Shown: positions 1,499-17,514 of the stretch, one piece after another | How positions within the stretch are numbered: the first letter of the stretch is position 1 | How the letters are laid out: each line of letters starts with the position of its first letter | NCBI GenBank assembly: GCA_032250835.1 | Contig: JAVVEA010000001.1 | Coordinates: forward strand, 607,304 to 666,624 | DNA: 59,321 nucleotides | Reading direction: 5' to 3' | From: a bacterium | GTDB lineage: Bacteria > SAR324 > XYD2-FULL-50-16 | Translations under genes and position numbers: made by a program | The notes under the pieces: generated by a model | The model's input: only the letters and a program-made list of their open reading frames with translations | Told to the model about the DNA's origin: nothing | The model's database searches: none

Positions 1499-1524
1499 GC
1501 CAACGAGGTAGTTTTGGGTTACTT
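1499..1524. repeat. 26-bp dispersed repeat, copy 2
   Basis: Matches 658..683 with 4 mismatches. Confidence 0.75.
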
Positions 1525-1674: not shown

Positions 1675-2186
1675 TAACTAAATACTTCTATTGAAGTATT
1701 ATGAGAGTACCTTAACCCCACCAGAATAGCCCCACCGACATCGCCTAGCCCCCTTAGCCGCTCTTAGCCGCCTTGCCCAGGGAGTCATCTTTAAGGTCAA
1801 CGCTTCGGCATTGCGCTGGGCTTGGGTGCGGTCTAAGGAAATCTGTAAGTTCATCGCGTAATCCTTCCTTACATCCCCCTCCTCGCGCCTCCCAATGCCG
1901 CCAAAGTCCAGGCTGGGTCTGACTTTTTTAATAATTTTGAATACAAAAATATTTCAGCTAATTAACAAAGTACTCCTAATGAAGTATTACTGAAGTACAC
2001 TAAGCGTTTAGGAAAAAGCTTCAGGTAGGCTCAAGAACCCTTATTCTTGTTGATTGCAGGGCAGGTCCACTCCTTTTTCGGTCGGCGCTTGGGCACAAAT
2101 TCGGCCTAGCCGTCTGGTCTGAAATTTTATTTATATATCAAATAAATAACAAAGTACTTCATATAGAGTATTAATGGAGTACCTAA
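1675..2186. repeat. Three ~41-bp AT-rich operator-like repeats (1675..1715, 1963..2003, 2147..2186)
   Basis: Consensus TAAC(A/T)AA(A/G)TACT(T/C)C-N4-RRAGTATTA-N3-RAGTAC..TAA; copy 1 contains the perfect palindrome AATACTTC-N4-GAAGTATT. Confidence 0.8.
1750..1854 (-). pseudogene. Decayed copy B of a tape-measure-like gene 5' end
   Basis: MNLQISLDRTQAQRNAEALTLKM, continuing as SLGKAAKSG after a 1-nt shift; AAGGAAGG RBS; lies downstream of the tail chaperone, where a tape measure gene is expected. Confidence 0.55.
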
Positions 2187-2309
2187 GAGTTTTCAGAATC
2201 GACGCCGCCTATACCTGCCAACCCCTTTTTCTTTGGCGCTGCCCCCAAAGGAACCAAGGTGGTTAGCAGGTATTCGTCGGCTGCAGTTTTAGGCGCTTGC
2301 CAGCATGCC

Positions 2310-2693
2310 TCATGCATCCTCGCTCGCGCCTTCTTCGAGCAGGCTGGGGTAGATGATTTGGTCCAATTTTAAAACCAGCCGAAGTTCTTCTTCGCCAAAG
2401 CCCTTGGCCTCCAAAAGCGCCAAGACGGCCTCGATCCGCAAGGGACCGACGCCGCCCATAAGGCCAAATTCGCGCCCGTAAAAGCTGAGCATTTGCCAAG
2501 TCTCGGCTAGCTCGGCTTCGTACCCGCTTAGGCCCGGCTCCCGCAAATTGGAACAGGGAGCCGGGCGGTCGCCGCCGGGGGCCCAACCGGCACAAGGAGG
2601 GCTGCCCCGGTGCAGGCGGTCGCAATCCTCACAGTCGATGCGCCCCGAGGCGTGGCTCTCGGCGTGCCACCGGCCCCAAGCGGCTAATATTCC
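2310..2693 (-). CDS. T portion of the G-T tail assembly chaperone fusion, reached by -1 frameshift
   Basis: The -1 frame is open from the slippery site to 2310: GILAAWGRWHAESHASGRIDCEDC...AETWQMLSFYGREFGLMGGVGPLRIEAV. Confidence 0.75.
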   Translation of the reverse strand, partial: GILAAWGRWHAESHASGRIDCEDCDRLHRGSPPCAGWAPGGDRPAPCSNLREPGLSGYEAELAETWQMLSFYGREFGLMGGVGPLRIEAVLALLEAKGFGEEELRLVLKLDQIIYPSLLEEGASEDA

Positions 2694-3094
2694 CCCGAGG
2701 CCTCCTGAGCGCTGGCTTCGCCTTCGATCAGCTCATCCAGGCGGTTAAACACCGGCAAGACCAAGGCGTCGTAATAGTTTTCGAACAACGCCGTCAGGTT
2801 GGCTTCGTTCAGCTCCACCGACCCCTCGTCACTTTCGAGGTTCCACCGCTTCCAGGTGCGCTTGGCGCGCTCTAGGTTGATGGTGAACTGGTCGGTTTCG
2901 GGTAGGCTCATGTCGAAGCTCGACTCCTTCTGGCCTTTACCCTTGCCGTGGATCATGGTGCGGCCCTTGGTGTGCTGGCTGACCAGCTTTAAGTCCGCCG
3001 ACTTGGGCAAGGGTTCGATGCTGACCTCAAAGCGCTCTTCGCCCAATTCTAAGACCACTTCGTAACGTTTGCGTTGGTTGGGATTTAATTTCAT
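2684..3094 (-). CDS. Phage tail assembly chaperone (G-like)
   Basis: 136 aa, directly after the tail tube gene, AAGGAG RBS, ends with G GGG GAA TAT TAG. Confidence 0.75.
   Translation of the reverse strand: MKLNPNQRKRYEVVLELGEERFEVSIEPLPKSADLKLVSQHTKGRTMIHGKGKGQKESSFDMSLPETDQFTINLERAKRTWKRWNLESDEGSVELNEANLTALFENYYDALVLPVFNRLDELIEGEASAQEASGEY
2690..2696 (-). other. Programmed -1 ribosomal frameshift heptamer GGGGGAA
   Basis: In-frame G GGG GAA one codon before the stop; the -1 frame joins the 2310..2546 ORF without a stop. Confidence 0.75.
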
Positions 3095-3103
3095 GACGCT
3101 CCT

Positions 3104-4492
3104 TTAAACGATGCTGATAAAGGCGCTACGCTCCACATCGGAGTCCAGCGCGGTGAGTTCCAGGGTCTTTTTGACCACCTCGTCGGCCACTTGGGTCGGC
3201 GGGATTTGCAAATGGCACTTAGGGAGGTCTACCCAAAGGGTCATCCCGGCGGTGCCGTCGCCTAAACGCAGGCCGAAGGCGCGGGTGGTGCCCTCTTCGG
3301 CGTCGTGGATCAATTCTAAGTCGGCGGTCTTAAAGACGCTTTCCAAGCTGGCCTTGATGTCGCGGCGCTGTTCCACAAAATCGGTGGGCGGGTTGGGGCT
3401 GATTTCTTCGTCCAGGTAGCGAATCGGGGCGCTGATGTTGATGTTGCCGCCGGTGGGTACTGCCTCGACGGCGTCTAACTGGACCATGCTGTCCGCGCTT
3501 TTTAGCTCCGCGCCCATATCCAAATGAGCCGGCAGGTAGCCTTGGATCACCGCCCCATTAGCCCAAGTGACCGCACTGGCCAAGGTGATTTGGTGGTTCA
3601 GGGTGTCTACAGCCACCACCTCATAGCCCGCCCCGGCGTTGGTGTCGGCAGCGGTGACGTTTTGGATGCGGGCCCCTAAGGTGAAGCGTTTGGCCTCACC
3701 AGCGGCCAGCGTCAAAACGGTCGAGGCAGTGACCGCCCCGTTTAAGGTTGCCTTACCGGCGCGGCCGCGCTCCATAAAGCCACCGTCTAAGTCAAAGGTG
3801 GGGTTGCCTTTGTTGGCCAAGCTCAGGGCCAGGGTGCTGACGGTGCAGCCACGGGCGAACCAGATCACCTCACCCATCTGGTACCAGACGCTAAAAGTCG
3901 GGCGGCCCATTTGCTGGATATAGGCGGGGTTGGCCAAAGCCACGGCATCGGTGGCCAAGAAGGCGGCGGCGGTGCTGCCTGCGTAACCACGCACACAGCC
4001 CGTGAAGCTGCCGCTGGTGGCGTCGGTTTGGGTTAGGCCGCTGTAATATACCAACTCGTCGTTAAGGCCGTCGCTTAGGTGCAACACACCGCGCGAGGGG
4101 GGCCAGTCGCCGCTGAGGGTATCAAAGGGGATGCTCACGTCCCCAGACGACACCCCGCCGACACCCACCAAGGCGCTGAAAGCCGCCTTTTTGCCCATTA
4201 AGGCCTGGAACAGCACGTCGCCCATCGGCGGCTTGATCAGGTTGGTGCCCACCCCGTCCAAGCGAGCCAGAATCTTCAGCTTTAGGGTGCCTGCGGCTTT
4301 TTTGTCCTGGGTACGGTCGGCTAGGTTGAGGCTGTTGCGGATCTCTTCGCTGTCGCTATAGCTGACCTGCTCGGTTAATTCCGGGTAAGCGGCGACGCGC
4401 AAGGCGTTGGCCTGGGCCGGAAAGGCCAAGGTTCCGCTGGTGGTTTCTTTAACCACAAAGAGTTTTAAATCACGGGGATTGATCTCCAACAT
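3104..4492 (-). CDS. Phage major tail tube protein with inserted beta-rich domains
   Basis: N-terminal LFVVKETTSG motif and PTFSVW; position between tail terminator and chaperone. Confidence 0.8.
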   Translation of the reverse strand: MLEINPRDLKLFVVKETTSGTLAFPAQANALRVAAYPELTEQVSYSDSEEIRNSLNLADRTQDKKAAGTLKLKILARLDGVGTNLIKPPMGDVLFQALMGKKAAFSALVGVGGVSSGDVSIPFDTLSGDWPPSRGVLHLSDGLNDELVYYSGLTQTDATSGSFTGCVRGYAGSTAAAFLATDAVALANPAYIQQMGRPTFSVWYQMGEVIWFARGCTVSTLALSLANKGNPTFDLDGGFMERGRAGKATLNGAVTASTVLTLAAGEAKRFTLGARIQNVTAADTNAGAGYEVVAVDTLNHQITLASAVTWANGAVIQGYLPAHLDMGAELKSADSMVQLDAVEAVPTGGNINISAPIRYLDEEISPNPPTDFVEQRRDIKASLESVFKTADLELIHDAEEGTTRAFGLRLGDGTAGMTLWVDLPKCHLQIPPTQVADEVVKKTLELTALDSDVERSAFISIV

Positions 4493-4525
4493 TTTGATCT
4501 CCTGATGGGTTGTTGGTGGGCCGCC

Positions 4526-4942
4526 TTAAGTGGCGGCAGTGAGGGAAACCTGCAAGAGATGCATTTCCCAGTTGTCTGTTGGGTTTTCTACATGGCGGCT
4601 TTGGGGCTCGCCCAATTCGACGCCGGCCAAATTCTTGCGCCGCAAAAGCGCCTCTAATGTTCCCGCCAGGGCCCCGCCCTGGCGCACTTGACCCTTAGGG
4701 GTAAAGATTTGCAGCAGCAACACGCCCGAGCGCAGCCCGGCCCCGCTGCGGCCTAGTTCTACTTCACGCACCGCCCCTAATTGGATGTTCGAGCGTACCC
4801 AGCTCTGGTCCGGCGTGGGGTTGCTCTGGGCCCCTACCGCCCCGCCGAACTGCTCCCACTGGGCCAGATAGGTTAGGTTAAGCAACGCCAATTGGCTGCC
4901 CAGATGGGATTCAAGGGCTTGGTAGATCGCTTCGGGGGTCAT
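4526..4942 (-). CDS. Phage tail terminator-like protein (DUF4128-like)
   Basis: WVRSNI...RSGVLLLQIFTPKGQ motif; synteny. Confidence 0.7.
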   Translation of the reverse strand: MTPEAIYQALESHLGSQLALLNLTYLAQWEQFGGAVGAQSNPTPDQSWVRSNIQLGAVREVELGRSGAGLRSGVLLLQIFTPKGQVRQGGALAGTLEALLRRKNLAGVELGEPQSRHVENPTDNWEMHLLQVSLTAAT

Positions 4943-5373
4943 AAGTAGCCCATTTTTTTAAGTTCCTTTTCAAGCCAATGCTTCGTTTCTTCTAAACTGA
5001 CCGCCACCGCCCCGGCCCCGGCGGACCCTGAGTTTCCGGCTTCAACCTGATCAATGTAAGACAGGTTGTTAAAAAGCCAGAGCCCCTGGGCGGCGGTGAT
5101 CCCGTCCAGGTCCGGCTCTTGGGGTGGGCCGAGTTCAAGTACCTTTGAGTTCAGCTGGTCGCTCAATTGCCAATTGGCCCTGGCCAAGCCCGTGTCTACC
5201 GGTGTCTTTTCAACGATCCGCCGGAACAGTTCTAAGGCGGTCTGGCGGTGGATTTGGTCTAGGTCGCCCTGGATGGCACTGCCTAGGTCTTCTAGATGTT
5301 GGGCAAACTGGTCGGCGGTCAGGCTCTTTGAAGCCGCGGCATCAGACAGTTCTTGGGCGGTTTTTTGTGCCAT
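4939..5373 (-). CDS. HK97 gp10-like neck/tail completion protein
   Basis: TPVDTGLARANW and FNNLSYIDQVEAG motifs. Confidence 0.85.
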   Translation of the reverse strand: MAQKTAQELSDAAASKSLTADQFAQHLEDLGSAIQGDLDQIHRQTALELFRRIVEKTPVDTGLARANWQLSDQLNSKVLELGPPQEPDLDGITAAQGLWLFNNLSYIDQVEAGNSGSAGAGAVAVSLEETKHWLEKELKKMGYL

Positions 5374-5379
5374 TTTTTG

Positions 5380-5802
5380 CTACCTAGCCAAAATTTCAAA
5401 AAGCACCCCCAGCCCCGCATCTTGAAGACTCGGGTCCGCCTCGATTTGCAGTTCCACTGCCTCATCGCTCAAATAAAGCCGGTCGCCTCGTAAGGGGCGG
5501 GGCCACTGCTGGCGCAAAGCACCTTCGCTCCAATCCTCGGCGCAGTCCCAGGCCCGGCCCGAAAGAGCCACCAAAAACCGGCGGGTCCCCTCCTTTTGGG
5601 CGGCGAAGGCCGCCGAGGGCGCGCCCGAACCGGATGCGGCCAGTTCCAGGGCCACTAATTCAAAGGCGCTGCGGCTGCGGCTGGTGGTGCCGGTGCTGTA
5701 GTCCGCCGCGCCTTCGCTGACCCGCCGCAAACGGCCCGGCTTAAATTGGGGCTCTTGGGAGAGGTCTTTAAATAACTGGTCGCGCTCATGGATTTGGCTC
5801 AC
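5380..5802 (-). CDS. Putative head-closure / head-tail joining protein
   Basis: 140 aa, GTG start, between the adaptor and gp10-like genes; assigned by synteny. Confidence 0.55.
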   Translation of the reverse strand: MSQIHERDQLFKDLSQEPQFKPGRLRRVSEGAADYSTGTTSRSRSAFELVALELAASGSGAPSAAFAAQKEGTRRFLVALSGRAWDCAEDWSEGALRQQWPRPLRGDRLYLSDEAVELQIEADPSLQDAGLGVLFEILAR

Positions 5803-5803
5803 C

Positions 5804-6289
5804 TCAACTCCTGCGGACTTTGCCCTTAGGCTGGTCCAGCAAGGGAGCCAGCAGGCGTTCCACCTGGGTGAAGTCGGTCAGGGAGCTGGCCCCTTCGCTA
5901 AACTCCGTTTCCACCGGGCCGGTCTTTTTCTTTTTGGCCTTGTCGGCCTTGGTCACGTCCGGGGCCAATTCCTGCTGGTCCACGCCCGACTTATGGGCCA
6001 AGATCGACACCGCCGCAATCAGCGGGCTGGGGATATTGGCCAACAGGCGGCCTTCGTTATCCATCATCCCATTTCGGGGCCAGTTGAGCGGCTGAGCCGT
6101 ATTGAGCCGGTAGCCGCGCCATAACCCCTGGTACTTGGCTTCTAGATAATCGGTAGCGGCGACCAGAGCGCCTTCTTTTTCCGCTTGGCTCAAAAGGGCC
6201 CAACCGGCGTTTAGGCGGGGTCGGTCACCCAGCCAAAGATCCGCCTGGGCTTGGGTGATGTAGCTGTTGGTGCCGGGTTCAAAGGCCAT
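5804..6289 (-). CDS. Head-tail adaptor (DnaT-like phage family)
   Basis: GTNSYIT..AD, KEGALVAATDYLE and QPLNWPR motifs; start placed at 6289 after an AAGGAGG RBS. Confidence 0.75.
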   Translation of the reverse strand: MAFEPGTNSYITQAQADLWLGDRPRLNAGWALLSQAEKEGALVAATDYLEAKYQGLWRGYRLNTAQPLNWPRNGMMDNEGRLLANIPSPLIAAVSILAHKSGVDQQELAPDVTKADKAKKKKTGPVETEFSEGASSLTDFTQVERLLAPLLDQPKGKVRRS

Positions 6290-6320
6290 GGGCCCTCCTT
6301 GCTTGGCTGTTATCTTCAAA

Positions 6321-6354
6321 GCCGGGCCCGCGCTCATTACGGCGCGGGCCCGGC
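6321..6354. other. Perfect 13-bp GC-rich hairpin upstream of the head-tail adaptor gene
   Basis: GCCGGGCCCGCGC-tcattacg-GCGCGGGCCCGGC. Confidence 0.7.
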
Positions 6355-6425
6355 GCTAGGGTTTAGGGTTTAAAAAATTTCTAAGCCGATGATGGACCCC
6401 CAGGCTTGGCGGTTCGAAAGCCCCT

Positions 6426-6713
6426 CTAGCCGCCCGGCTTGAGCGCCAGCCAGGTGCCCAGCGCAGCGAGCGCCGGGGCCAAGATCGCCGCGGCCACCCA
6501 GCGCATTGCCGAAAAATAGGGCCGCTGGCCTGCTTGCACCAGCGCCACATCTTTTTCCAGCGCGTTGATCCGGTCAAAAATCAGCTTGAGGTCGTCGCGG
6601 TTTTGGCTTTCGTGGTCCGTCCACTTCTTGTCGAAATCGCCGCGTAGGTCTTTGATGTCATTACGCAGGTCCTTCAATTGGTCTAGAATTTGTTGTTGTA
6701 GTGTTTCGCTCAT
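6426..6713 (-). CDS. Small coiled-coil protein with C-terminal TM helix (holin/XhlA-like candidate)
   Basis: Heptad-rich N-terminus; hydrophobic WVAAAILAPALAALGTWLAL. Confidence 0.55.
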   Translation of the reverse strand: MSETLQQQILDQLKDLRNDIKDLRGDFDKKWTDHESQNRDDLKLIFDRINALEKDVALVQAGQRPYFSAMRWVAAAILAPALAALGTWLALKPGG

Positions 6714-6784
6714 GCTCTAGAGCCTTAAATGTAGCGGCGCGGGCAAAGACCAAGTTAACCGGCCCGCCCGAATCCGCCGTAGGT

Positions 6785-7057
6785 TTAGTCTCCGCCAGCC
6801 TCCCTTGAGGTTGGCGGATTCTTTTGTGCCTGAGTGATGGCTTGGATCAAGCGGGTTTTGGTCATCTTTGCCGCCCCTTCGAGCCCCAAGGATTTGGCTT
6901 GGGACTTCAGTTCACTTAAGCTCCAATCCTCTAAAGGCAGCGGGGCTAGCGCGGGGTTTTCGTTAAACAGTTGGTGTACTTTGGGGTTGTAGTCTTCGGC
7001 GTTGATGATGCGGAACTCTTTGCCCTCTTGTATCTTCACCGTTTTTAGCCATGCCAT
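6785..7057 (-). CDS. Phage protein with Rho-N/HeH-like helical domain
   Basis: LEDWSLSELKSQAKSLGLEGAAKMTKTRLIQAI; typical position after the capsid gene. Confidence 0.7.
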   Translation of the reverse strand: MAWLKTVKIQEGKEFRIINAEDYNPKVHQLFNENPALAPLPLEDWSLSELKSQAKSLGLEGAAKMTKTRLIQAITQAQKNPPTSREAGGD

Positions 7058-7080
7058 AAGATCCTTAAGCCAAAGGTAAA

Positions 7081-7105
7081 GGCCGGGGGCTCCTTGCCCC
7101 CGGCC
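7081..7105 (-). terminator. Hairpin after the capsid gene (weak terminator or mRNA stabiliser)
   Basis: GGCCGGGGGC-aagga-GCCCCCGGCC followed by TTT on the minus strand. Confidence 0.55.
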
Positions 7106-7111
7106 CAGAAA

Positions 7112-8278
7112 TTAACCTGCGATACGGCAGGCCAGTTCGGGCCGCAAGAGGGCCGTACCAAAGAGTACGTCGATCTCCCAGCGGATCTGCTTGTATTGGC
7201 GGATTTTCTCCAAACGGACCGGAATCTTGGTGACCGGATCAATCAAGATCACGGACTCCAACTTTTCGACGCTGTCCAATTCCTTGAGTCCCTGATCGGG
7301 CATGCGGAAGGCCAGGGCAAAGGCGTCTTGGTGAAAAGCTAGGTTGACCTTGTGGCTGTCCTTAAAGGTTACCTGGGCGTTGTCGGCCCAAGCTACCTTG
7401 GCGGCGGGCTCGAAGGTCAAACCGGCCAGCGCGTTGGCCGCGGCGGTTTGGGTGCTGGTGTTGGTGATGCTGTAGGTCTGGCTGTCGCCAGCGACGCTGA
7501 ACACATCGCCGGGCTCGACCGTGCCGGTTAGGCTGGTTGCGTCCAGGTCCATGGTCTTGGCACCTACCGCTACGGCGCCGTTAAGCAAGGCCCGGTGAGC
7601 CGTGCCGTCGCTTAAGTTACCGGCGGTGTGGCTGGGGACGTTGTCGTCATAAAAGAAATCAAAACCAAACTTGCGGCCAATCTGGCCCTCGCGTTTGGTG
7701 CCGATGTCGCCCGACTCGGCCACGTTTTGGAAGGCCGAAAGGGCCAAAGCATTGGCTTCGGCGTCTGCATCGATGATGCAGCGGCGGCTTTCCATGGGGG
7801 CGCGTTGCTGGGCTAATACCTTGCGGGCGTTGATGATCTCGTTGGCATTGGTGGCGAAGGGCGTAGTGCCGGGGGTACCGGCAAAGCCGTATACGCCTTT
7901 GTAATTAGCCAATACCGCCGAGTTGATGTACTGACCCATGGCCTCAAAGGCCTCCTGCATCCGCAGCGGAACGAAGTCCTTGTTGGCTTCGATCTCGCCC
8001 ATTTCTTTGTCGGTCATGCCCCAGTTGGCCTGTTTCCAATGGTTCAACACCAAAGGAACGGTCTCGGAGGTAGAGGCCTCGGGGGCCGGGGAGGTCGGCC
8101 CCGGAACCACGTCGCCCACGGTCCGGGTGCCGGGCAGGGCGAAGTTGATGGTGTCGCCCTTTTGTTTGACTTCCTGTTCAAAGTCGGTGCGCACCAAAAG
8201 GGGCATCATGGTCTTTGAACGCAGCACGGGTAGGCCCCGCGCCAAGATCATCAACATCATTTTTTGCAAGTTGTTCAT
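7112..8278 (-). CDS. Major capsid protein, P22 coat-like
   Basis: KGDTINFALP, GQIGRKFGFDF, NLAFHQDAFALAFR and DVLFGTALLRPELA motifs. Confidence 0.9.
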   Translation of the reverse strand: MNNLQKMMLMILARGLPVLRSKTMMPLLVRTDFEQEVKQKGDTINFALPGTRTVGDVVPGPTSPAPEASTSETVPLVLNHWKQANWGMTDKEMGEIEANKDFVPLRMQEAFEAMGQYINSAVLANYKGVYGFAGTPGTTPFATNANEIINARKVLAQQRAPMESRRCIIDADAEANALALSAFQNVAESGDIGTKREGQIGRKFGFDFFYDDNVPSHTAGNLSDGTAHRALLNGAVAVGAKTMDLDATSLTGTVEPGDVFSVAGDSQTYSITNTSTQTAAANALAGLTFEPAAKVAWADNAQVTFKDSHKVNLAFHQDAFALAFRMPDQGLKELDSVEKLESVILIDPVTKIPVRLEKIRQYKQIRWEIDVLFGTALLRPELACRIAG

Positions 8279-8307
8279 CGCCTTCCTTGGGTTCTCGCGC
8301 TAATGCG

Positions 8308-9042
8308 CTATTTGATGTTTCCGGCGGCAATCTGCTCAAGCTGTTCTTGGGAAACCGTTTTCCCGTTCACCTGCTCAAGACTGATCCGCCCGCTATGAGT
8401 CACTTGCCCGCCACCCTGGGCACCGCCGCCGGAGCTGCCCTTAAACAAAAAGGGGCGCTGCGCTTGCTGTTGCAGCACCCACTTTTCCATGTCCAAGGGC
8501 TTCACACCGTCGTAAAGGGTGCCACCGCTAGGGTCTACGGGTTTCACCTGACCATCTTCGCCCATTTTAAACACCGACTTGCCTAGACCCAACAAAATGT
8601 CCAGCGCGCCTTCTTGCAGGCCACCGACCTGATTGATCGCCCCGGTCAACCGCTGGGTCACGTTTAGTTCCTCTAGCTGAGTCAGCAGTTGCGCCTTCTC
8701 GGCGCTGCTGTTCTGCTCTAGCTGAGACATCGCTAAGCGGGTGGATTCCAACTGGCGCTCATACTCGTCCTTGAGTTTTGCTACCATTTCATCGCTAGAG
8801 TTCCCCGAACCCTTCAGCGCAAAATCCTTGGCTTCGTCGCGCTCTTTGGCTAGCTTCACGTTGTTTTGGCGGAACTCGTCTACCTTGGCTTTGTGTTTGT
8901 CTCGTTCTTCTTCCAGCTCCTTCAATTTCCCTGCGGGTACGTAATCGCTGAAGGCATATTCGCCTTGCGGGGTCGGTTTGTAATCCGCTTGAACCCAGTC
9001 GGGAAGCTGGTCAAAGTCTTCTTGGGTGATGATGTCTTTCAT
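8308..9042 (-). CDS. Capsid scaffolding protein
   Basis: Coiled coil, VDEFRQNN, C-terminal PFLFKGSSGGGAQG; between portal and capsid; AAGGAG RBS before the ATG at 9042. Confidence 0.8.
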   Translation of the reverse strand: MKDIITQEDFDQLPDWVQADYKPTPQGEYAFSDYVPAGKLKELEEERDKHKAKVDEFRQNNVKLAKERDEAKDFALKGSGNSSDEMVAKLKDEYERQLESTRLAMSQLEQNSSAEKAQLLTQLEELNVTQRLTGAINQVGGLQEGALDILLGLGKSVFKMGEDGQVKPVDPSGGTLYDGVKPLDMEKWVLQQQAQRPFLFKGSSGGGAQGGGQVTHSGRISLEQVNGKTVSQEQLEQIAAGNIK

Positions 9043-9129
9043 GCTCCTTGCCCCTGGCAAAGGTTGAGGCCCACCGGGCCGGGTAGCCCGCCGCGCGGAA
9101 TGCGCGGCGGGTTTGTGTGCTGATGTTCG

Positions 9130-9165
9130 TTACTTTACCGCGAAGTCCTTGTTTCGTTAATTTTT
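9130..9165 (-). promoter_or_regulatory. Putative late promoter for scaffold/capsid genes
   Basis: AAAAATTAACGAAACAAG-N8-GGTAAAGT; the 18-mer is identical to 12869..12886. Confidence 0.65.
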
Positions 9166-9192
9166 CCTCCTCAAGGCTTGCGGATAAGGCCT

Positions 9193-10590
9193 TTAGGCCT
9201 CTTGAGACGGTTGCGGCAACTGGCCCAAAAACTCCTGGGCCGTGGCCGTGGCGGGCAGTAGTTCACCGGCTTCTAAAGCAGCGGCGAAGTCGCCTAAGGT
9301 GTACTTGCCCCGGTCCACCAGATCGGCCAGCTTGACGGCGTCTTCAACGGGCATCTGGCCGGGGCTGAAGTCGCGGTTTAAGCTGATTTGGGGGGCCGGT
9401 TCCGCGAAGCCGGACATAAAGGACCAGAGCCGCAAGACCTCGCTTAACTGCTCGCTACAGGCCTCGGCGACCACCGCCAAGTGGCTCTTTTCGCCTTCTT
9501 TGAGCATTTGCTGGTTCTCAGCGCTCTGGCTGGACTTCTTGGGCGCTTCGAGCATCCGCAAACCCAAGGTGGCCATCTCTTCTTTCTTGGCGTTTAGGTT
9601 TTCGCGAAGTTCCAAAACGCTGGTGCCCTTTAGCTCCAACAAAAATACCTTGGCCTCTGGCGAACCGAAGGCATTAAAGGCCGAAGAACCCATCCTTAAA
9701 GACTGAGCATCCTGGGCCTGAACCCCGGTGGCGCAGGGCGTGGGGTTGCCCACAAAGTAGAGGGCATTTTCTAAATCCGCGCTGGTGCGGTAATAGCTAA
9801 GGGCCAGCAAACAAATCTTCAGCAGCGGCGGCTGCTCTGGGTCCGCATCACCGCCGCCGGGGCCGCAGAAAACAAAGGGGATCTCGCCCAAATATTCACC
9901 TTTGACCTTCGGATAAACTGCCGCTTCGCCCACCCAGGATTCGCCTTGCTCGGTTTGAACCTTCACATGAACCTGCTGGTAATAACGCCCCTCTTCGTCT
10001 AGCGCCAACAGGCGCAAGCGCTCCAACTTTTTGTATTCTTCGCTGGGACGCTCGGGATCAGGGCCCCAGTAGGACTCGCGCAGCACCAAGCGGGTCAAGC
10101 GCTCGGTGCCGCCATAACTGTAGCTTTCCCAGCTCAGGATATTTTCGGCGCTATAGCGGGCCACGTAGGCCAGCGCCCCAGAGCGCTCCTGGGGGGCCAA
10201 GTCCACCAACAAACCAACTCGGCCCACAGACAAAACCTCGCGCACTACATCACGCGCCAGCTTCGTTACCCCGCCCCGGCGGGTGATCCGTTGCAGGCCA
10301 AGCTGGACCGGTTCGGTAAGGTTTTTGAGAACCGGGCGCTTACGGAAGATTTGGCCCAACATGCCTTCTAAGGTCCGCTCGGGGGCCTCATAAAACCTAG
10401 CCCGCAACTTGTAGGCATGGTATTCCGCCCCGTCCATTCCCGCCGGTTTAGGCAAGTATTCGGTCCCCTCTTCTTTAACCGCCAATTCGCCCGAAACGCA
10501 GTTGCGGCAGGTCTCCCAGATCTCTTCAAACTTTTTGTATAAGGGGTGTTTTAGTTGGATTCGCAAGGTTCCTCCTGTTTGGTGGATCAT
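9193..10590 (-). CDS. Portal protein (DUF4055 family)
   Basis: YLPKP...EYHAYKLRARFY, GRVGLLVD, IPFVF and PPLL motifs; follows terL. Confidence 0.9.
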   Translation of the reverse strand: MIHQTGGTLRIQLKHPLYKKFEEIWETCRNCVSGELAVKEEGTEYLPKPAGMDGAEYHAYKLRARFYEAPERTLEGMLGQIFRKRPVLKNLTEPVQLGLQRITRRGGVTKLARDVVREVLSVGRVGLLVDLAPQERSGALAYVARYSAENILSWESYSYGGTERLTRLVLRESYWGPDPERPSEEYKKLERLRLLALDEEGRYYQQVHVKVQTEQGESWVGEAAVYPKVKGEYLGEIPFVFCGPGGGDADPEQPPLLKICLLALSYYRTSADLENALYFVGNPTPCATGVQAQDAQSLRMGSSAFNAFGSPEAKVFLLELKGTSVLELRENLNAKKEEMATLGLRMLEAPKKSSQSAENQQMLKEGEKSHLAVVAEACSEQLSEVLRLWSFMSGFAEPAPQISLNRDFSPGQMPVEDAVKLADLVDRGKYTLGDFAAALEAGELLPATATAQEFLGQLPQPSQEA

Positions 10591-12105
10591 TTAAAATTGC
10601 TTTTGTTTGAGGCTGACTAAGCCCCCGCTGGTGCTGGTCAACTCATAACGCAGGGCGTCGTACAAATGGTCTTCGCCCTGGGTGTCTAGGTCGTCGGGGT
10701 TGCTGGGGTCTAGCTGTAGGCCCGGTAGGGTGCGGATCAACTGACGGCAAGTCTCCACCACCCATAACCCCGGCTCGGTGGGGCGCTCTTCGGCAGCGTT
10801 TTGCAGCAATTGGCAAATCTTGCGGTAGCCGGTGGCGCGGCTACCGGGCCCCTTTTCGGCCGGGATGAAGCTGATGCCCGAACGGCCCATGTCCGCCGCC
10901 GGGCTGCTGGCTGTTCCGGCTCCGTTGAAGATGCTGGTGTCCGCCGCACCGGCCATAACCCGGCCCCGCAGCCCCATTTGGGCTTCCCGTTCGGCAATTC
11001 CCTGCCCAATGGCCAGATCCAACAGACGCAACCCCTGGTTCGGCTCCCCATTCCAGCCGTACCATTCGCCGAGCACCACATAAGACCCCTTAGGTGGAGC
11101 AAAGCGCCGCCCCAAGGCTAAGGGCACCTCCTCCCCGTTGGTCTTGGCCACCCAAAGCACCGCAAAGGGAGCCGAAAAGCCCCAGTCATAGGCCCGGCGG
11201 ATGGTCCAGCCTCGGGGGATATCAAAGTAGGGGAGTAGGTGTTTTTGGGCATCCCAAAGCCCGTCGAAGGCACCTCCGGCGACGATGTCCCAATTATTGT
11301 TCAGCCAAGCTTGCCGGTAAGCCTCGTTGGGCGGATTGAGCCGGGCTTGGTATTCGGGGTCCGCTTGGAGCAAGGGGGTGTTTTCGCTGAACAATATCTT
11401 CACCCTAGCGCGGCTCAGGCGCAGGGTCTTAAAACCGCCCTCCCCATCGGGAATCTGGCGCTCGTCAAAGGCCACGGTGCCCGGCGGGCCGATGTCGATC
11501 AGCCGTTTTTTGACCCAGCTATGGCCCGGCCCCGCCGAGTTGGCGGTGGCACGGATGCGGGGCTTCACCTTGGGATTAGAGGAACGGGCGCAAGAAAACA
11601 TTTGCAGGTAAAGGTCCGGCTCGCGCCAGTTGGTTAACTCTTCCCAAAGCTGCCAAGGTAGTTCCCAACCATGGAACTTCCAATAGTCTGAGGCCCGCTT
11701 GGCGGCTAAAAATTGCAGTTTTTCGCCGCCCTCAAAGACCCACATGGGCCGGTTGCCGGCCTTGAACTTGGCTTTGGGGAAGATGCGGGGGATAAGGGCT
11801 TCACTCTTGGCGATAATGTCTTCAAGCTCCGTAAAGGTCTCGCGGAAGACCGCCCCGCGCCAGCTAGGCCCTAAGCCGGTACCCACGTCTTTGAGGTAAT
11901 CCATCAGGCCCGTTTCGGACTTACCGCCGCCCCGGTCCCCTTCGCCCAACAGTTCAAAGACCGGGGAACTGATAAATTGTAGTTGCCCGCCAAAGTTGGG
12001 TTTCCAAACAATTTGGGCCGATGGGTCTTGGGGCATGTTGAGCGACTTGAAAAGTAGAATGGGTAAAGGTAGAGCCGGTAAACGATCGGGCCTCATCAAG
12101 GCCAT
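10591..12105 (-). CDS. terL: Terminase large subunit (start at 12105 or 12036)
   Basis: Walker A GDRGGGKS, EELT Walker B, ATAN coupling motif, RNase H-like AYDWG and EDHLYDALRY. Confidence 0.92.
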   Translation of the reverse strand: MALMRPDRLPALPLPILLFKSLNMPQDPSAQIVWKPNFGGQLQFISSPVFELLGEGDRGGGKSETGLMDYLKDVGTGLGPSWRGAVFRETFTELEDIIAKSEALIPRIFPKAKFKAGNRPMWVFEGGEKLQFLAAKRASDYWKFHGWELPWQLWEELTNWREPDLYLQMFSCARSSNPKVKPRIRATANSAGPGHSWVKKRLIDIGPPGTVAFDERQIPDGEGGFKTLRLSRARVKILFSENTPLLQADPEYQARLNPPNEAYRQAWLNNNWDIVAGGAFDGLWDAQKHLLPYFDIPRGWTIRRAYDWGFSAPFAVLWVAKTNGEEVPLALGRRFAPPKGSYVVLGEWYGWNGEPNQGLRLLDLAIGQGIAEREAQMGLRGRVMAGAADTSIFNGAGTASSPAADMGRSGISFIPAEKGPGSRATGYRKICQLLQNAAEERPTEPGLWVVETCRQLIRTLPGLQLDPSNPDDLDTQGEDHLYDALRYELTSTSGGLVSLKQKQF

Positions 12106-12110
12106 GGATT

Positions 12111-12746
12111 TTAGGCGTCTGCTTCGGTCTGTGGTTTGGGTAACTTCGGCTTGGACTGAGCTTTGACCATCTGTTCCCAATCCTCGAGCGTGGCGGCCAC
12201 CGCCGGAACCACAATCGCGCCGGGCTGGCCGATCTCGCCGGAATGTTCGACCTGGGTCTTGTCGGACCAAGTCTGGGGCGCTTTGTTGGTCAAGATCATC
12301 CTGGCGGCCCGCTCGTTGGGGGCCACATGTTTGGTGCCGCGCTTGACCCGCTTTTTCACCCCTGCCAACAACCCCTGATGGAACACTTCCTCTTCGATCA
12401 CCTCCTCAAAATCCAGCCGGTAGCCCACCGCCGAGCGGAACAGCGCCGCCTCGACCTGGGCCACCGCCACTTGGTCGCCCCGCGAGAGCGCTTCGGCGAA
12501 TTCAGGGTGGCGGTTTTGGTAATTAAGCAAAGAAGCCCTGGACACCCTGAGGTTGCTGGCGATTTCCTCTCGACTTGCGCCTGCCTTTGCCCATTCTTCC
12601 ACCTCCTCCAAACGCCCTTCCACATGGGTGGGATATTTGTCTGGACGTCCTTGGGGTCGCTTGGGCGTTAGTTTCTTTTTTTGCGGCTCCTGGCCTGAGG
12701 ATTTAGGTTTCTTTTCGACTTTTAGGCTTGTCTTTTTGGGGGGCAT
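12111..12746 (-). CDS. terS: Terminase small subunit
   Basis: GRPDKY, HTH (EEIASNLRVSRASLLNY), VEAALFRSAVGY and WSDK motifs; AGGAGG RBS before the ATG at 12746. Confidence 0.85.
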   Translation of the reverse strand: MPPKKTSLKVEKKPKSSGQEPQKKKLTPKRPQGRPDKYPTHVEGRLEEVEEWAKAGASREEIASNLRVSRASLLNYQNRHPEFAEALSRGDQVAVAQVEAALFRSAVGYRLDFEEVIEEEVFHQGLLAGVKKRVKRGTKHVAPNERAARMILTNKAPQTWSDKTQVEHSGEIGQPGAIVVPAVAATLEDWEQMVKAQSKPKLPKPQTEADA

Positions 12747-12850
12747 CCGCTCCTCCTGGCGGGTTCGATCTGACAGGCTCCTTCCTTGGAGCCCAGTAAT
12801 AAACTCCATCCATGGAATCCAACCAAAACTTTGCGCCTCTAGCGCAACCA

Positions 12851-12950
12851 GAGTAGTACCATGGTCGGCTTGTTTCGTTAATTTTTTGGCTGCAGCGGTC
12901 TTTAATCCGTGGCCTTGCCCGCAAACCCTTGGTCCAAGCAAATTAACGAA
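12851..12950 (-). promoter_or_regulatory. Putative late promoter for terS, with an inverted half-site
   Basis: AAAAATTAACGAAACAAG-N8-GGTACTACT at 12869..12886; inverted core AAATTAACGAA at 12940..12950. Confidence 0.65.
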
Positions 12951-12963
12951 TCCGTGGGACCCA

Positions 12964-13722
12964 TTAGTTTAAGGGGGTGCTGCTGGAGCCTAGCAACCAC
13001 AGCCTCAACTCCGCCCGAGACTTAACCGCGACGCCCAGATAAAGCACCTCAAAGCGCTCGAAGCTTAAGGAGCCGGGGGCGAACTGGCGGCAGACCGCTT
13101 GGTAGACTTCGCTACGGCGGGCGTTGTAGTAGCCATTTAGTAAAACTTGGACGATGGCGCGGCGCAGGTCCGCCTGGGCAATCGGTTCGGGCTTGTCGGG
13201 CGGTTCAACCGCCTCGGGAGGTGACTCTGGCAAAGGCAGGTCGCTGCAGGCACCTAAGCCAAAGGGGCTATCCAACTGGGCCAACGCAGCGCGGTACTTA
13301 GCTACCAGATTGGGGCTGATCCCGAAGTCTTGACTCGCTTCTAAGTCGCTCAGCCCAGCATAATAACGCGCCATCACCAGCAGGCCCAATAGGGCTTGGT
13401 TGGTTGCCGTGGAGCCCTCGAACAACGAGCCCAGACGGTAAGAAAAGCCCGTCTTGCCGCGGCCCAGCTTGTGGCAGGTTAGGCAGGTGTACCCCTTGGC
13501 GTTGCCGCGCTCCTTGGAGCGGTAACGCCGAATCCGCTGCGCGCTGCGTTCAAAGCAGCGCGGGCAACGGGGCCGTCCTTTGTGCTCGGGCCAGCGCAGA
13601 TTGCAAAGCATCTTATAGGCGGCTTCATCGTCCAGCCCATGCAAGATCTGGCTAGGCGTCAGTTCCGCTAGTGCCTGTTCCACTTGGAGCCTAAATTCGG
13701 GCTCCGGAGCGAGGTGGTTCAT
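12964..13722 (-). CDS. IS1595-type zinc-ribbon + HTH protein lacking a DDE domain; candidate regulator
   Basis: DDEAAYKML..LRWP, CPRC...CLTC, FSYRLGSLFEGS and HTH ASQDFGISPNLVAKY; no IS1595 catalytic region follows. Confidence 0.7.
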   Translation of the reverse strand: MNHLAPEPEFRLQVEQALAELTPSQILHGLDDEAAYKMLCNLRWPEHKGRPRCPRCFERSAQRIRRYRSKERGNAKGYTCLTCHKLGRGKTGFSYRLGSLFEGSTATNQALLGLLVMARYYAGLSDLEASQDFGISPNLVAKYRAALAQLDSPFGLGACSDLPLPESPPEAVEPPDKPEPIAQADLRRAIVQVLLNGYYNARRSEVYQAVCRQFAPGSLSFERFEVLYLGVAVKSRAELRLWLLGSSSTPLN

Positions 13723-13831
13723 AAAAGGATTCTTAGGAAGGTCGCGTCTGGGGTTGAAAATAGACCGGATAGGGAACCGGCCTCCCAAGGCAGAACGCTT
13801 TGGGGGCCTAGAGAGCTTTGGGGGCGCGGTT

Positions 13832-14107
13832 TTAATCGCGGCTTGCGGCCATAGCCTTGCGCTGTTCCAGCTTGGCGATTTCGGCGGCGGCGCGCTTGAG
13901 GCCAGCGAAACTGGCGGACTTTAAGACGTCCTGATTTTGCACCGGGGCGGCGTCGATGGCTTGGATCAGTTCATCTTTACCGCGCTTGAGGGCCACCAAA
14001 TAGGCCCCCGCACCGGGAAAGATCACGGCGGTTACCAGCGCCAACGCGTCGATCAGGTTGCTCCAATCAGCCGGGGTGAGGTGGTGGAATAATTCGCTTA
14101 ACATCAA
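13832..14107 (-). CDS. Small membrane protein (holin-like candidate)
   Basis: One hydrophobic segment (LIDALALVTAVIFPGAGAYLVAL) and a charged C-terminus; GGAG RBS. Confidence 0.55.
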   Translation of the reverse strand: MMLSELFHHLTPADWSNLIDALALVTAVIFPGAGAYLVALKRGKDELIQAIDAAPVQNQDVLKSASFAGLKRAAAEIAKLEQRKAMAASRD

Positions 14108-14510
14108 GGTTCTCCGCTAAGGGGCTTTAGCCCAGGTTTCGGCTTTCGGGTCAGTCCTGTGGTTCGGCAAGGGCCACCGCTTCACCAACCAATTTTCTGG
14201 CCCTAACTTAGCAACAGAAGGTTCCCCGAATAAGCGGGAAGGGGTTCCCTTTTTGGGAAAACAGGGGCGGCAAGGCACAAGATGGGGAGATCACGGCCGG
14301 GAGCTGATTCATAACCAATTGAAACAACAGGCATAGTATGACAGGAGAGACGGAAAAACGAGGTTGATGAGGACGAAGCGACGATAGGCTTTGAGCTGGG
14401 ATCAAGTCTCTAGAAACCAAAGCAAAAAGGGCAGAACCTTGCGCTAGAGACCGCAACCAAGTGCAGGAACAAGCTTCGCTCAAAAGAAGAGCGTTAGGAG
14501 GAGGGGAGGA

Positions 14511-14590
14511 GGGTGAGAGGGTGAGAGGGTGAGAGGGTGAGAGGGTGAGAGGGTGAGAGGGTGAGAGGGTGAGAGGGTGAGAGGGTGAGA
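14511..14590 (+). repeat. Tandem repeat (GGGTGAGA)x10
   Basis: Ten perfect 8-bp units counted directly. Confidence 0.97.
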
Positions 14591-15009
14591 GGCACCGCCT
14601 TGGGTTTTTGGTGAGCCATGGCCCGCCAGCGCGCCGGGCAACCCAAACCCAAAGCCCCGAAGAAACCCCAAGGTGGCGCTTAGTTCAGGCCTGAGGATGG
14701 AGGCTTAACAAAGCCATGGGGGCAGCGGTGCTGGCGCGCAAGCAGTCAAGGGCCAATTTTTTGGGTCCTGCTTGGAGCCGCCGCCCAGCGAACCGGAAAG
14801 ACAGAGAAACCTTCCGGCTATTTTCTAGTCCAAGGTAATGGTCTCATGCAATTTACCTCCACCGCGGCCTAAGCAGTGCAGCGGGGAGCGCTACTTTCTC
14901 GTGATGGGAACCATACCTAGACCGGAGCAATAGCTACGCGGTTGGGCACACAGGTCTGGCCATCAGTTTGAGCCGGAAGGCAATAAGTGGTTTTTTTTGC
15001 GCATTTAAA

Positions 15010-17514
15010 TCAGGTGATTTTCGCCGGTGTCTCGGCCCCACCTTCGCCACGGATCTGGAAGCGGCCTACATTGCTTTGCAGTTGGTTGGCGATTTCGGCC
15101 AAGCGGTTGGATTCTTCGCTGATTTGCTCGGCCCCTTTGGCGGTTTCGTTGCTGGCTACGTTTAGTTGCTCCATGGCCTTGGCCACCTCTCGGGCCCCCT
15201 GAGACAGTTCCGAAGCATTCCCCGACAGCTCGCCGACCGAACCGGACAGTTCCCCAACCCAACCGGCAACTTGCTCGATCCGCTGGCGGGAGGACTGCAT
15301 CTCCCGCTCCATTTTAACGGCTTGGTCCGCTTGGGTCTGAGAAGCGGCGGTGACTTCGCCGACCGACTTGGTGACCTCGTCGATGCCGTCTAAAACTTGG
15401 TGCACCGCTTGGATCGCCTCTGTGGTTTCCACCTCGATCTGATTTACTCTCTGCCCAATATCCTCGCTGGCCTGACCGCTCTGCATCGCCAGTTCCTTAA
15501 TTTCTCCGGCCACCACCGCAAAGCCCTTGCCCGCCGCACCGGCACTGGCCGACTCAATGGTAGCATTTAAGGCCAACATGCGGGTCTGGGCCGAAATGTT
15601 TTGGATTAGCTTGGCCACCTGATTGATGTTTTGGTTGTTTTTTTGTAGCCGCGTCATGGCGGCGGTGGCCTTTTGGCTTAAGGCCTGAACCTTGGCACTG
15701 GCCTTACCGGCCTGGGCAGTTTGGTGGGCCACTAGCTTGATGTTCTCGGTCAGGTGTTCCACCGTTTTGGTGACTTCGCTGATGCTGTGGGTGACTTCGG
15801 AGGTGTTGTCGGCAATCTGTTTGGTTTTACCGTCAATATGGTCCGTTCCCTGAGCCAAAGAAGCTATGTTGGCACTCATCTGTTCGGAAGCCGCCGCAAT
15901 GGTGCGGGTCTCCGCGCTCATCTCGGTGGAGCTGTTGGCCATCTGGGTACTGACCGCCGACAGCTCGGTAGAGCTGCTGGCTAACCGCTGTGCATCGGCG
16001 CGCACTTGGCTCAATATTTGGTTTAAATCATCGGTCATCTGCACCAGCGCCTTCCCCAAAATGTCTTGATCGCTAGAAAGGGATAGGTGATAACGTAAGT
16101 CCCCAGCGGCCACTAGGCGGGCGGCTTTGGTTTTTTCTTGGAGACTTTCGATCATCTTCACTAGAGATTGGCCCAAGGTATCCTGCTCAGAGAGCAGTAC
16201 CACATCTTGCTGCATATCACCCAAAGCCACCGCGTGGGCCAGCTGCACCCGCTGTTTGAGGCTTTGCGCAAATTGGTTCATCTGGTCGCTAATTTGGCCG
16301 ATTTCGTCGCGAGCCTCTAAATCCAAGTGGCTATCTAAATCCCCCAGTCCCAGCCCTTTTAAAAAGACAGACATCTTGGCGAAGGGGGTGATCACAAACT
16401 GGCGCAGGAAGAAGACGCTCAATAGAGCAATGATGGCCAACAAGACCGCCGAAGAGCCGACAAATACCCAGGCGACCCGAAGCTCTTCGGCGTATACCTG
16501 TTCGCGCTCCTTGGCGATTGTTTGGTCTATGTCGTCAATATAAACCCCAGTACCCAAAACCCACTTCCATTCGGGGAAAGCCGCCACGTAAGACATTTTG
16601 GGTTGAGGTGTTTCGATCCCCGGCTTGGGCCATTGGTATGCAACAAAGCCGCTGTTTTGTTCCCGAGCGACCTTGGCGAATTCCACAAAAATCGCTTTAC
16701 CTGCGGGGTCTTTAAACCCGCTCAAATCTTTCCCGTTCAGTGATGGGTTGGTCGGGTGCATCACCATCTTGGCGTCAAAGTCGTTGATCCAAAAATAACC
16801 TGATTCACCGTACCTTAGGCCTTCAACAATCATAGCTGCTTGGGCTTGCAGGTCCCGCCGGATGTCGGCGTAATATTCCCCGGTGCCCAAGACCCAGTTG
16901 TAGGGCTTAAAGCTAAAGACATAAGAGATTTTTTGTTCCGTTTGCTGGTTCGATGGATTGGGCCAGCGGTATTCGACAAACCCGGCCCCCGCCTTTTTCT
17001 GGGTCGCTTGAACGAATTGGCGGAATAGATAGACCCCGTCGGGGTCCTTTTGGTCCCCTAAATATTTACCCTCAAGCTCTGGTGACATGGGATGCATCAC
17101 CATACGCAAGGAGGTGTCGTTGATCCAGAAATATCCCCCGCTTTCGGTGCGGTAGCTTTTGGCGAACTGCATTAACAGGTTGCGCAGCTCTCGGGCGGGC
17201 ATCTGGTTGACATTGTCTTGGTAGATTTGTTCTAGCCGCTGCTTAAATTGCTTGGCCTCTTGTTCGATGCGCAGCCGGATCGTTTCGTTACTGGAGCTGG
17301 CATAAATCCGGTCCAACGCCCCCATCACAATGGCGGTATGGCTGACCAAGGTTTCTTTGGTTTGCTCCAGGAGTTGTTCCTCATGGTCCACCAAACGCTG
17401 CTCGCCGTTCTGCTCCATCTGCCAAATCACGAAAGAAGTCCCCACAAGGGCCAGGAAAAATAAGGGCCCGAGGGTCAACACCAGGAGCTTGGTTTTAAGC
17501 GAAACGTTATTCAT
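15010..17514 (-). CDS. Methyl-accepting chemotaxis protein with two Cache domains
   Basis: Two YFWIND..MVMHP..GFV.Y.WP repeats, HAMP, signalling motif QTRMLALNATIESASAGAAGKGFAVVAGEIKELA. Confidence 0.95.
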   Translation of the reverse strand: MNNVSLKTKLLVLTLGPLFFLALVGTSFVIWQMEQNGEQRLVDHEEQLLEQTKETLVSHTAIVMGALDRIYASSSNETIRLRIEQEAKQFKQRLEQIYQDNVNQMPARELRNLLMQFAKSYRTESGGYFWINDTSLRMVMHPMSPELEGKYLGDQKDPDGVYLFRQFVQATQKKAGAGFVEYRWPNPSNQQTEQKISYVFSFKPYNWVLGTGEYYADIRRDLQAQAAMIVEGLRYGESGYFWINDFDAKMVMHPTNPSLNGKDLSGFKDPAGKAIFVEFAKVAREQNSGFVAYQWPKPGIETPQPKMSYVAAFPEWKWVLGTGVYIDDIDQTIAKEREQVYAEELRVAWVFVGSSAVLLAIIALLSVFFLRQFVITPFAKMSVFLKGLGLGDLDSHLDLEARDEIGQISDQMNQFAQSLKQRVQLAHAVALGDMQQDVVLLSEQDTLGQSLVKMIESLQEKTKAARLVAAGDLRYHLSLSSDQDILGKALVQMTDDLNQILSQVRADAQRLASSSTELSAVSTQMANSSTEMSAETRTIAAASEQMSANIASLAQGTDHIDGKTKQIADNTSEVTHSISEVTKTVEHLTENIKLVAHQTAQAGKASAKVQALSQKATAAMTRLQKNNQNINQVAKLIQNISAQTRMLALNATIESASAGAAGKGFAVVAGEIKELAMQSGQASEDIGQRVNQIEVETTEAIQAVHQVLDGIDEVTKSVGEVTAASQTQADQAVKMEREMQSSRQRIEQVAGWVGELSGSVGELSGNASELSQGAREVAKAMEQLNVASNETAKGAEQISEESNRLAEIANQLQSNVGRFQIRGEGGAETPAKIT

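Follow-up and report, generated by a model that had tools for sequence, protein, structure and literature searches.

What kind of element is an ordered set of siphovirus head and tail genes that lies in a bacterial chromosome, with host genes on both sides and no gene for integration, replication, immunity or lysis in it or its flanks? The question is raised by a cluster at the left end of a 59,321-nucleotide stretch from a bacterium of the SAR324 lineage XYD2-FULL-50-16 (assembly GCA_032250835.1, contig JAVVEA010000001.1). This stretch, hereafter the window, comprises G000:C11:607304-666624, in which G000 is the genome and C11 the contig, and was read together with the 40 kb to its left. An earlier note, made from the sequence of the window alone, had proposed a domesticated particle resembling a gene transfer agent (GTA). 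With slightly better than even confidence, we read the element instead as a grounded (defective) prophage that has retained its whole siphovirus morphogenesis arm.

The part of the cluster inside the window consists of 14 intact morphogenesis open reading frames (ORFs) on the minus strand, running from position 12746 down to 2310, from the small terminase gene terS to the G/G-T tail assembly chaperone pair. Gene names were assigned from Pfam and PHROG profile matches. The packaging genes comprise terS (12111..12746; phrog_309, 9.9e-40; about 211 amino acids (aa) from an MPPKK start), the large terminase gene terL (10591..12105; phrog_979, 2.2e-19; start at 12105 or 12036) and a DUF4055-type portal of 465 aa (9193..10590; PF13264, 2.5e-27; phrog_145, 2.8e-100, profile positions 10-457 of 493). 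They are followed by a scaffolding protein (8308..9060; phrog_206, 3.6e-23) and a major capsid protein of the P22-coat type with 388 aa (7112..8278; PF11651, 6.5e-14, over the whole profile; phrog_283, 1.1e-73), which is present in a single copy in the genome. Both the intact co-directional cluster and its P22-like coat, scaffold and DUF4055 portal had been described in the earlier note, and the profile matches bear this out.

The head-tail joining and tail genes follow in tight succession on the same strand. They include a head-tail adaptor of the Ad1 type (5804..6337; PF20557, 1.5e-25; phrog_477, 1.4e-30), a Neck1 or tail completion protein (4939..5373; phrog_169, 1.2e-15), a tail terminator (4526..4942; phrog_179, 9.6e-10) and a tail tube protein of 462 aa (3104..4492; PF18906, 1.1e-11; phrog_290). 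Between Ad1 and Neck1, an intact ORF for a 140-aa protein without a Pfam or PHROG family match starts 1 nt after Ad1 (5380..5802) and, judging from its position, may encode a head-closure or neck protein. Chaperone G (136 aa; 2684..3094) gave no Pfam or PHROG match and was assigned from its position and from 44% identity to a 136-aa ORF at the same place in a genome of the same family, G002. The T part (2310..2546) was recognised in a three-frame translation and is 38% identical to the matching ORF of G002. Its frame is the -1 frame of G, open from about 2735 across the stop of G, and a GGGGGAA run lies beside that stop, which is the usual G/G-T layout. Throughout, the late genes abut or overlap; a Shine-Dalgarno-like motif precedes 12 of 19 starts, and five of the other seven lie at most 6 nt from the preceding stop.

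Contrary to the impression of an operon running uninterrupted off the window edge, the cluster is broken at position 2309 by a 5.6-kb insert on the opposite strand, and its tail genes resume beyond it. There, to the left of the window and on the minus strand, lies a tape measure of 1360 aa (PF10145; phrog_28, 8e-32), followed by a 598-aa protein, two small proteins of 262 and 161 aa, and a 462-aa tail fibre (phrog_8469) at the left end of the element. An Atlas model of the 598-aa protein resembled the phage hub protein gpD (Phage_GPD clusters) with TM scores of 0.71-0.76 by matched row, and a predicted gpD-like fold is offered as a lead only. The earlier note had suggested looking left of the window for tape-measure, tail-tip and integrase genes; the tape measure, the hub-like protein and the fibre were found, and no integrase nearer than 47 kb. 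The one-strand siphovirus module thus runs in order through terS, terL, portal, scaffold, coat, head-tail joining, tube, G/G-T, tape measure, hub-like protein and fibre, and no distal tail protein was identified among its ORFs. Significant phage-family matches cover terS, terL, portal, scaffold, coat, adaptor, neck, terminator, tube and tape measure, the predicted parts of a phage-like particle. A tailocin, which has tail genes only, was ruled out by the presence of terminase, portal, scaffold and coat.

From terS to the tail fibre, the element extends over 25,831 bp, about 20.3 kb of it phage DNA, and it is endogenised, with host genes at both ends and no integrase within 47 kb. On the left, a PAS histidine-kinase gene on the opposite strand ends 40 bp past the fibre stop, with response regulators and a cbb3 oxidase beyond it. 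On the right, the flank is formed by a host methyl-accepting chemotaxis protein (15010..17514, minus strand; dCache_2, HAMP and MCPsignal domains). Between the 500-nt left junction and the 1.1-kb right junction, no common repeat of at least 11 nt was found.

Equally informative is what the element lacks. Among the ORFs of the element and its flanks, Pfam and PHROG searches returned no integrase, recombinase, replication, repressor or lysis family, and no replication genes lie within 20 kb to its left or 45 kb to its right; the other 45 kb of the window hold signalling genes and a defence-type island, not phage replication genes. The absence of replication, integration and immunity modules, on which the earlier note had built its case, is thereby confirmed for element and flanks, and the integrase, replication genes or attachment (att) sites that it had suggested seeking just outside the window were not found there, as the nearest integrase is 47 kb away and the junctions have no repeat in common. 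An intact temperate prophage does not fit these data, with neither an integrase or transposase accompanied by att repeats nor replication, immunity and lysis modules. A satellite of the PICI-like kind was also dropped, as there is no integrase or replication gene.

The genome contains six PF00589 matches. The nearest to the element, 47 kb to its left, adjoins the transfer-messenger RNA (tmRNA) gene and was rejected as the element's own integrase in view of this distance, the cbb3 oxidase and transporter genes in between and the lack of an attR copy; a lambda-type layout would, moreover, place it on the other side. The tmRNA 3' end was not found again near the element or to the right of the tmRNA gene on C11. 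In its own right, this locus (L165:6568-8702, equal to C11:546567-548701) has a classic ssrA-island layout, with the tmRNA gene followed directly by a 557-aa tyrosine-integrase gene.

For the grounded prophage, the following course of events is proposed. The early arm, with the lysogeny, replication, late-control and lysis genes, would have been lost, and the morphogenesis arm left in the chromosome; the element alone cannot excise, replicate or lyse the cell. In a later step, secreted-protein cassettes on the opposite strand would have expanded between chaperone T and the tape measure and split the late operon. We infer this order of events, and the cluster would now be silent or reliant on outside factors. 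As the structural genes are whole and appear to have been under purifying selection at least until recently, either the loss is recent or the genes are still useful to the host.

The insert itself (C11:604043-609612; 5.57 kb, plus strand, GC content 0.46-0.50) separates the tail-tip genes from the remaining late operon. It has the order S-A1-S-B1-S-A2-S-B2-S', its right part being window positions 1..2309 and the rest L002:16740-20000. The A (about 260 aa) and B (about 247 aa, weak DUF4875) proteins are secreted or lipoprotein-like paralogues encoded on the plus strand, and each S is a 53-288-nt copy of the 5' end of the tape-measure gene with its upstream DNA, at 75-94% nucleotide identity; some units also hold a degraded copy of the end of chaperone T. 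In the window, the insert contributes the C-terminal part of secreted protein A2 (2-388), a 100-aa ORF (324-626) and the lipoprotein-like B2 (747-1487; weak DUF4875), all on the plus strand, together with tape-measure 5' segment copies at about 419-471 and 1771-1870. Only 35 nt separate chaperone T from the tape measure in G002, which identifies the array as a later insertion, enlarged by unequal exchange among its S copies. Members of the B family were found in no other genome, and a C-terminal motif common to A and B was noticed by eye.

The closest phages are siphoviruses with genomes of 56-76 kb. The coat shares 38-40% identity with those of the uncultured siphovirus MW202657.1 and the Vibrio phage SSP002 group (39.5% with that of a 56-kb siphovirus), and TerL shares 41-43% with those of Rhodobacter phage RcRudolph and the Pseudomonas phages M6 and Epa5 (for the Rhodobacter and Pseudomonas siphoviruses, 42-43% over 95-98% of the protein). 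Phage records matching the coat numbered 82 and those matching terL 694, all below 60% identity. These P22-coat/DUF4055 siphoviruses (the SSP002 group, M6, Epa5, RcRudolph and MW202657.1) have the same morphogenesis gene order as the element and differ from it in genome size. In MW202657.1, a divergent replication arm with DNA polymerase and ligase starts just upstream of the terminase genes, and this arm is wholly absent here.

Among bacterial relatives, the element is rare. A portal protein search matched 3 of 41 genomes (40 relatives and G000), and a portal profile found matches in 2 of the 19 genomes of the family and in 3 of the 88 of the class, with G000 counted each time. The earlier note had held that patchy presence in close relatives would speak against its reading, and patchy presence is what was found, in a comparison set in which G000 is the sole species of its genus. 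A portal search of genome contigs returned no close relatives. The one syntenic cluster within the family, in G002, has identities of 43% for terL, 37% for the portal, 46% for the coat, and 44% for both the tube and chaperone G, with closely matching lengths (here and in G002, respectively: terL 479 and 463 aa, portal 465 and 459, coat 388 and 392, tube 462 and 471, chaperone G 136 and 136). Upstream of its terS lie a host-like hydrolase, a TPR protein, a response regulator and a hybrid kinase, and no integrase occurs on its 46.5-kb contig, off which the tail end of the cluster runs. Synteny of the flanks between G000 and G002 was considered and rejected: a response regulator/HD-GYP gene beside both clusters gave the top match in G002 and seemed orthologous, but the reverse search prefers another G000 copy (309 versus 286 bits); the remaining G002 flank genes map to other G000 contigs, and the G002 cluster is at a different locus. 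With flanks not in common and presence patchy, vertical co-diversification is not seen above the species level.

Other relatives carry more or less of the arm. G033, of the same class (portal 29%), has PHROG-matching phage genes throughout the 12 kb that precede terS and an integrase 30 kb upstream of it, and its element is a fuller prophage. Metagenome contigs scanned with terL gave 80 loci that were kept, the best at 54% identity, and only one of them (L020) reaches 5 of the 21 proteins. Three of these loci, L017-L019 (terL 54%, portal 48-50%, terS 34-35%; contigs of 32-178 kb), stem from a relative of the present host and carry an intact terS-terL-portal trio alone (about 9400-12900 in each), with a phosphonate ABC transporter on one side and hybrid kinases with CheB/CheR on the other. 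A search of viral contigs with the coat returned one match, at 29%. G033, G002, L017-L019 and the present element appear to belong to a single phage group that has been lost to different extents in related hosts, and the sequence G033, G002, L017-L019 suggests a decay series.

Several findings weigh against a merely grounded prophage. A survey of 1384 prophages reports that the genes preferentially lost from incomplete prophages are those for packaging and release, while integrase, transposase and tail-fibre genes tend to be kept (PMC7744054); the element is the reverse of the trend described there, having kept packaging, head and tail genes and lost the integrase. Its codon usage is typical of the host (GC content at third codon positions 0.698 versus 0.674 +/- 0.067; 50th percentile for a value resembling the codon adaptation index), which also holds for many phages. 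Its rise in GC content stays inside the host coding range and is no evidence either way. The G002 cluster is a second structural-only cluster in another genus, and the packaging trio of L017-L019 has been kept whole; both could reflect selection.

The most pointed of these findings comes from a metagenome run, X1, with contigs 88-98% (roughly 95%) identical to pieces of the cluster, cassette B2, the spacer upstream of the cluster and the chemoreceptor gene. X1 contains 0.13 of the sampled words, its contigs are short, and none of the listed pieces crosses a junction. Among the 40 differences listed of 483, 16 fall in cluster genes, of which 13 are silent and three are conservative replacements. 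By chance, 68-75% would be non-silent, which gives P <=4e-4 for 13 of 16 silent, and the coding insertions and deletions occur in compensating pairs (12675/12685 and 13771/13775). The cluster genes have thus, as far as these substitutions tell, been under purifying selection after the G000 and X1 copies split, and the silent-site excess and compensated pairs argue against neutral decay. As none of the listed X1 contigs bridges a junction, the split is not placed after the loss of the early arm, and the selection may predate that loss, when the phage was active; the excess is not yet evidence of function. Purifying selection on prophage remnants was reportedly documented by Bobay et al. 2014. 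Of the tests of synteny and of silent versus replacement change that the earlier note had suggested, the second thus gave a signal in X1, and the first led to a G002 cluster at another locus.

Cryptic or grounded prophages in general resemble the element in that phage DNA is fixed in the chromosome, with host genes flanking and neither excision nor replication, and differ in keeping the integrase and losing packaging genes, at least within the trend that PMC7744054 describes. An arm kept against this trend, together with the silent excess, leaves a GTA- or PBSX-like particle as a serious rival. In this alternative, which we consider less likely, the host would keep a functional particle maker: a subpopulation of cells would express the cluster under a host signal, build heads and tails, and fill them by headful packaging of chromosomal DNA from a site recognised by the terS product, with lysis functions supplied from elsewhere. 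In its favour, all of the approximately 19 structural genes, including the G/G-T layout, are intact and the self-propagation genes absent, and the retention opposite to typical decay (as far as PMC7744054 describes it), the host-like codon usage and the signs of selection against X1, which also carries pieces of the insert, spacer and chemoreceptor gene, point in the same direction. The patchy presence, the locus not common to G002 and the late operon split by 5.6 kb of antisense genes point away from it, and the X1 signal may date from the time of an active phage. As for lysis, the genome has a single T4-type lysozyme gene (PF00959; C22:398336-398842) and no PF01510 (Amidase_2) match; the lysozyme could serve the particle, yet it is unlinked and stands in what looks by eye like a Mu-type remnant. 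At C22:396494-399183 it lies between ORFs that resemble, by eye, Mu-type early and Mor-type genes, and this region may be a second phage remnant, of Mu type.

As a switch for such a device, the region upstream of terS offers two candidates. As the earlier note had stated, only a Zn-ribbon gene, a small membrane-protein gene and about 900 bp of non-coding DNA separate the cluster from the chemoreceptor gene. The Zn-ribbon gene is a 274-aa ORF (12964..13788, minus strand; PF12760, 7.9e-09) without a DDE domain; the copy in the protein collection has 252 aa, which fits a start at 13722. It is followed upstream by a gene for a 91-aa protein (13832..14107, minus strand) with one predicted membrane helix, read by eye, and no family match, and then by a 902-bp spacer (14108..15009) without a convincing ORF. 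The spacer contains a perfect tandem array of 10.5 copies of an 8-nt unit (GAGGGTGA; 14509-14592; 100% matches), unique in the genome, which is a possible slippage-prone switch. Either this array or the Zn-ribbon protein could control a particle-making cluster. No sigma-70-like promoter consensus was found in the spacer or upstream of terS. A sigma-54 promoter was rejected, with two matches in the window, none near the cluster, against 4.6 expected by chance. This lack of a consensus upstream of terS fits a late operon without its lost activator.

The earlier note had given the cluster its own activator, for which the Zn-ribbon gene offers no support. In a word-based search of 5.8 billion proteins its product matched only itself, and an exhaustive phmmer search added three full-length relatives at 27-32% identity, together with short Zn-ribbon matches. 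A scan of species genomes with an alignment of these relatives yielded 66 loci, all of them N-terminal only and within residues 1-192, and several genomes have more than one copy, as is expected of IS1595 transposases. The sole viral match is a true IS1595 transposase with a DDE domain, a domain that the Zn-ribbon protein and its three full-length relatives all lack. No match was found in phage records or in the G002 cluster, and none of the 80 metagenome loci has the Zn-ribbon or the 91-aa gene. A predicted structure was unusable (mean pLDDT 43.6). The protein is plausibly a transposase-derived DNA-binding protein, to judge from these similarities, and a nearly orphan gene with an N-terminus like that of IS1595, not kept in G002, counts against a host-kept particle maker.

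Comparison with defined particles leads to the same verdict. As PMC9662315 sets out the term in its definition, GTAs are tailed-phage-derived particles that carry mostly random host DNA, are fully endogenised, have a head too small for their own locus, are inherited mostly vertically and diversify with their hosts, and deliver the DNA to other cells. Of these properties, phage-derived parts and endogenisation are found here, and vertical co-diversification is not. For head capacity, the locus has 25.8 kb and the genomes of the coat relatives have 56-76 kb; head size is not readable from sequence, and the head could probably hold the whole locus, which leans against a GTA and differs from the defined ones. 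On the properties given in that definition (PMC9662315), the element is not classed as a GTA. What stands of the earlier proposal of a GTA-like domesticated particle is the complete, intact and host-flanked module without early genes, with its mostly silent differences from a near-identical relative; what lacks support is an activator of its own, and the patchy presence and the split operon count against the proposal.

RcGTA-type agents (Rhodogtaviriformidae) are likewise chromosomal head-tail clusters, about 15-20 kb long, that lack integrase, replication and linked lysis genes, as far as PMC9662315 outlines them. The element differs from them in its P22-type coat with a separate scaffold, DUF4055 portal and full-size small terminase, in the absence of any PF05065 match, in giving no sign of co-diversification with its host, and in a locus that probably fits its own head. 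The capsid of RcGTA is of the HK97 type and comes with a protease. PBSX of Bacillus is also a chromosomal phage-like element with a full structural set and no means of propagating itself, and it keeps its own repressor, a late sigma-like activator and a lysis cassette, none of which was found in the present element.

A more specific and rather doubtful version holds that the element is a working, host-fixed DNA-packaging particle of a little-studied lineage, independent of the known GTAs and derived from a siphovirus with a P22-type coat, in which packaging is directed in place from a pac site and the 8-nt array serves as an on/off switch. With no excision or replication and a full-size terS, it would package from a chromosomal pac site and take up successive headfuls of the neighbouring host DNA, and it would then be a permanent platform for lateral transduction, not a random packager. 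Slippage in the 8-nt x 10.5 array could limit expression to few cells. If particles are made, the element would represent an independent domestication of a DNA-transfer device, in a poorly studied lineage and with a capsid type that the known GTAs lack, and it would offer a natural test of whether packaging in place from a pac site can turn into a host function. Given the excess of silent differences from a wild relative, the question of function is worth pursuing. If the element is a grounded prophage only, it is ordinary though unusually tidy, and would illustrate that decay can drop an early arm and leave about 20 kb of structural genes whole.

Much less probable is a helper-dependent reservoir, in which the silent cluster would be activated in trans by, or recombine with, an infecting or co-resident relative that supplies late activation, replication and lysis, its genes persisting through repeated rescue into active phages. 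The modules are indeed mosaic, as L017-L019 have terS, terL and portal (34-54%) in common with the element but not the coat, and the genes are intact, with signs of purifying selection. Against this, the 97%-complete genome has no second head or tail set (one P22-type coat, one PF10145 tape measure and no PF05065 HK97-type capsid), and no close phage relative was found, all being below 60% identity and the best metagenome terL at 54%. Least probable by far is an assembly artefact that hides the missing modules behind scaffolding errors or gaps: the insert does contain two N runs (129 and 8 bases) and the small contigs C21 and C37 carry further cassette copies, but both outer boundaries lie in gap-free sequence, the ends at the 8-N gap overlap, as the same 26 residues are present on both sides, the gaps fall in the interval from chaperone T to the tape measure, which is no place for an early module, and the head and tail halves have the order and strand expected of a siphovirus.

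Some minor features of the window complete this account. Directly 3' of the coat gene, a strong GC-rich hairpin of 11 pairs, 10 of them G-C, is followed by a T-rich run (7080..7106, minus strand), a consensus match only. Between the coat and Ad1 genes, two small proteins are encoded on the minus strand, one of 90 aa with a Rho_N (SAP-like) domain (6785..7057; PF07498, 1e-08) and one of 95 aa whose N-terminal part is coiled-coil and whose C-terminal part is hydrophobic (6426..6713; sub-threshold Pfam match only). No Rfam family was found in window positions 1-18200, and no tRNA gene in the window. Beyond the chemoreceptor gene, positions 18125-25987 hold an ORF for a hybrid histidine kinase of 2620 aa, and after it come genes for a response regulator that has an HD-GYP-type domain and for a receiver-ATPase protein. 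Farther right, positions 38052-51989, with a low GC content of 0.42-0.49, hold defence-type genes, which encode a DUF4435/AAA_21 ATPase, a TerB_N/TerB/TerB_C protein, a RecQ-type helicase and a HEAT/AAA_11 protein.

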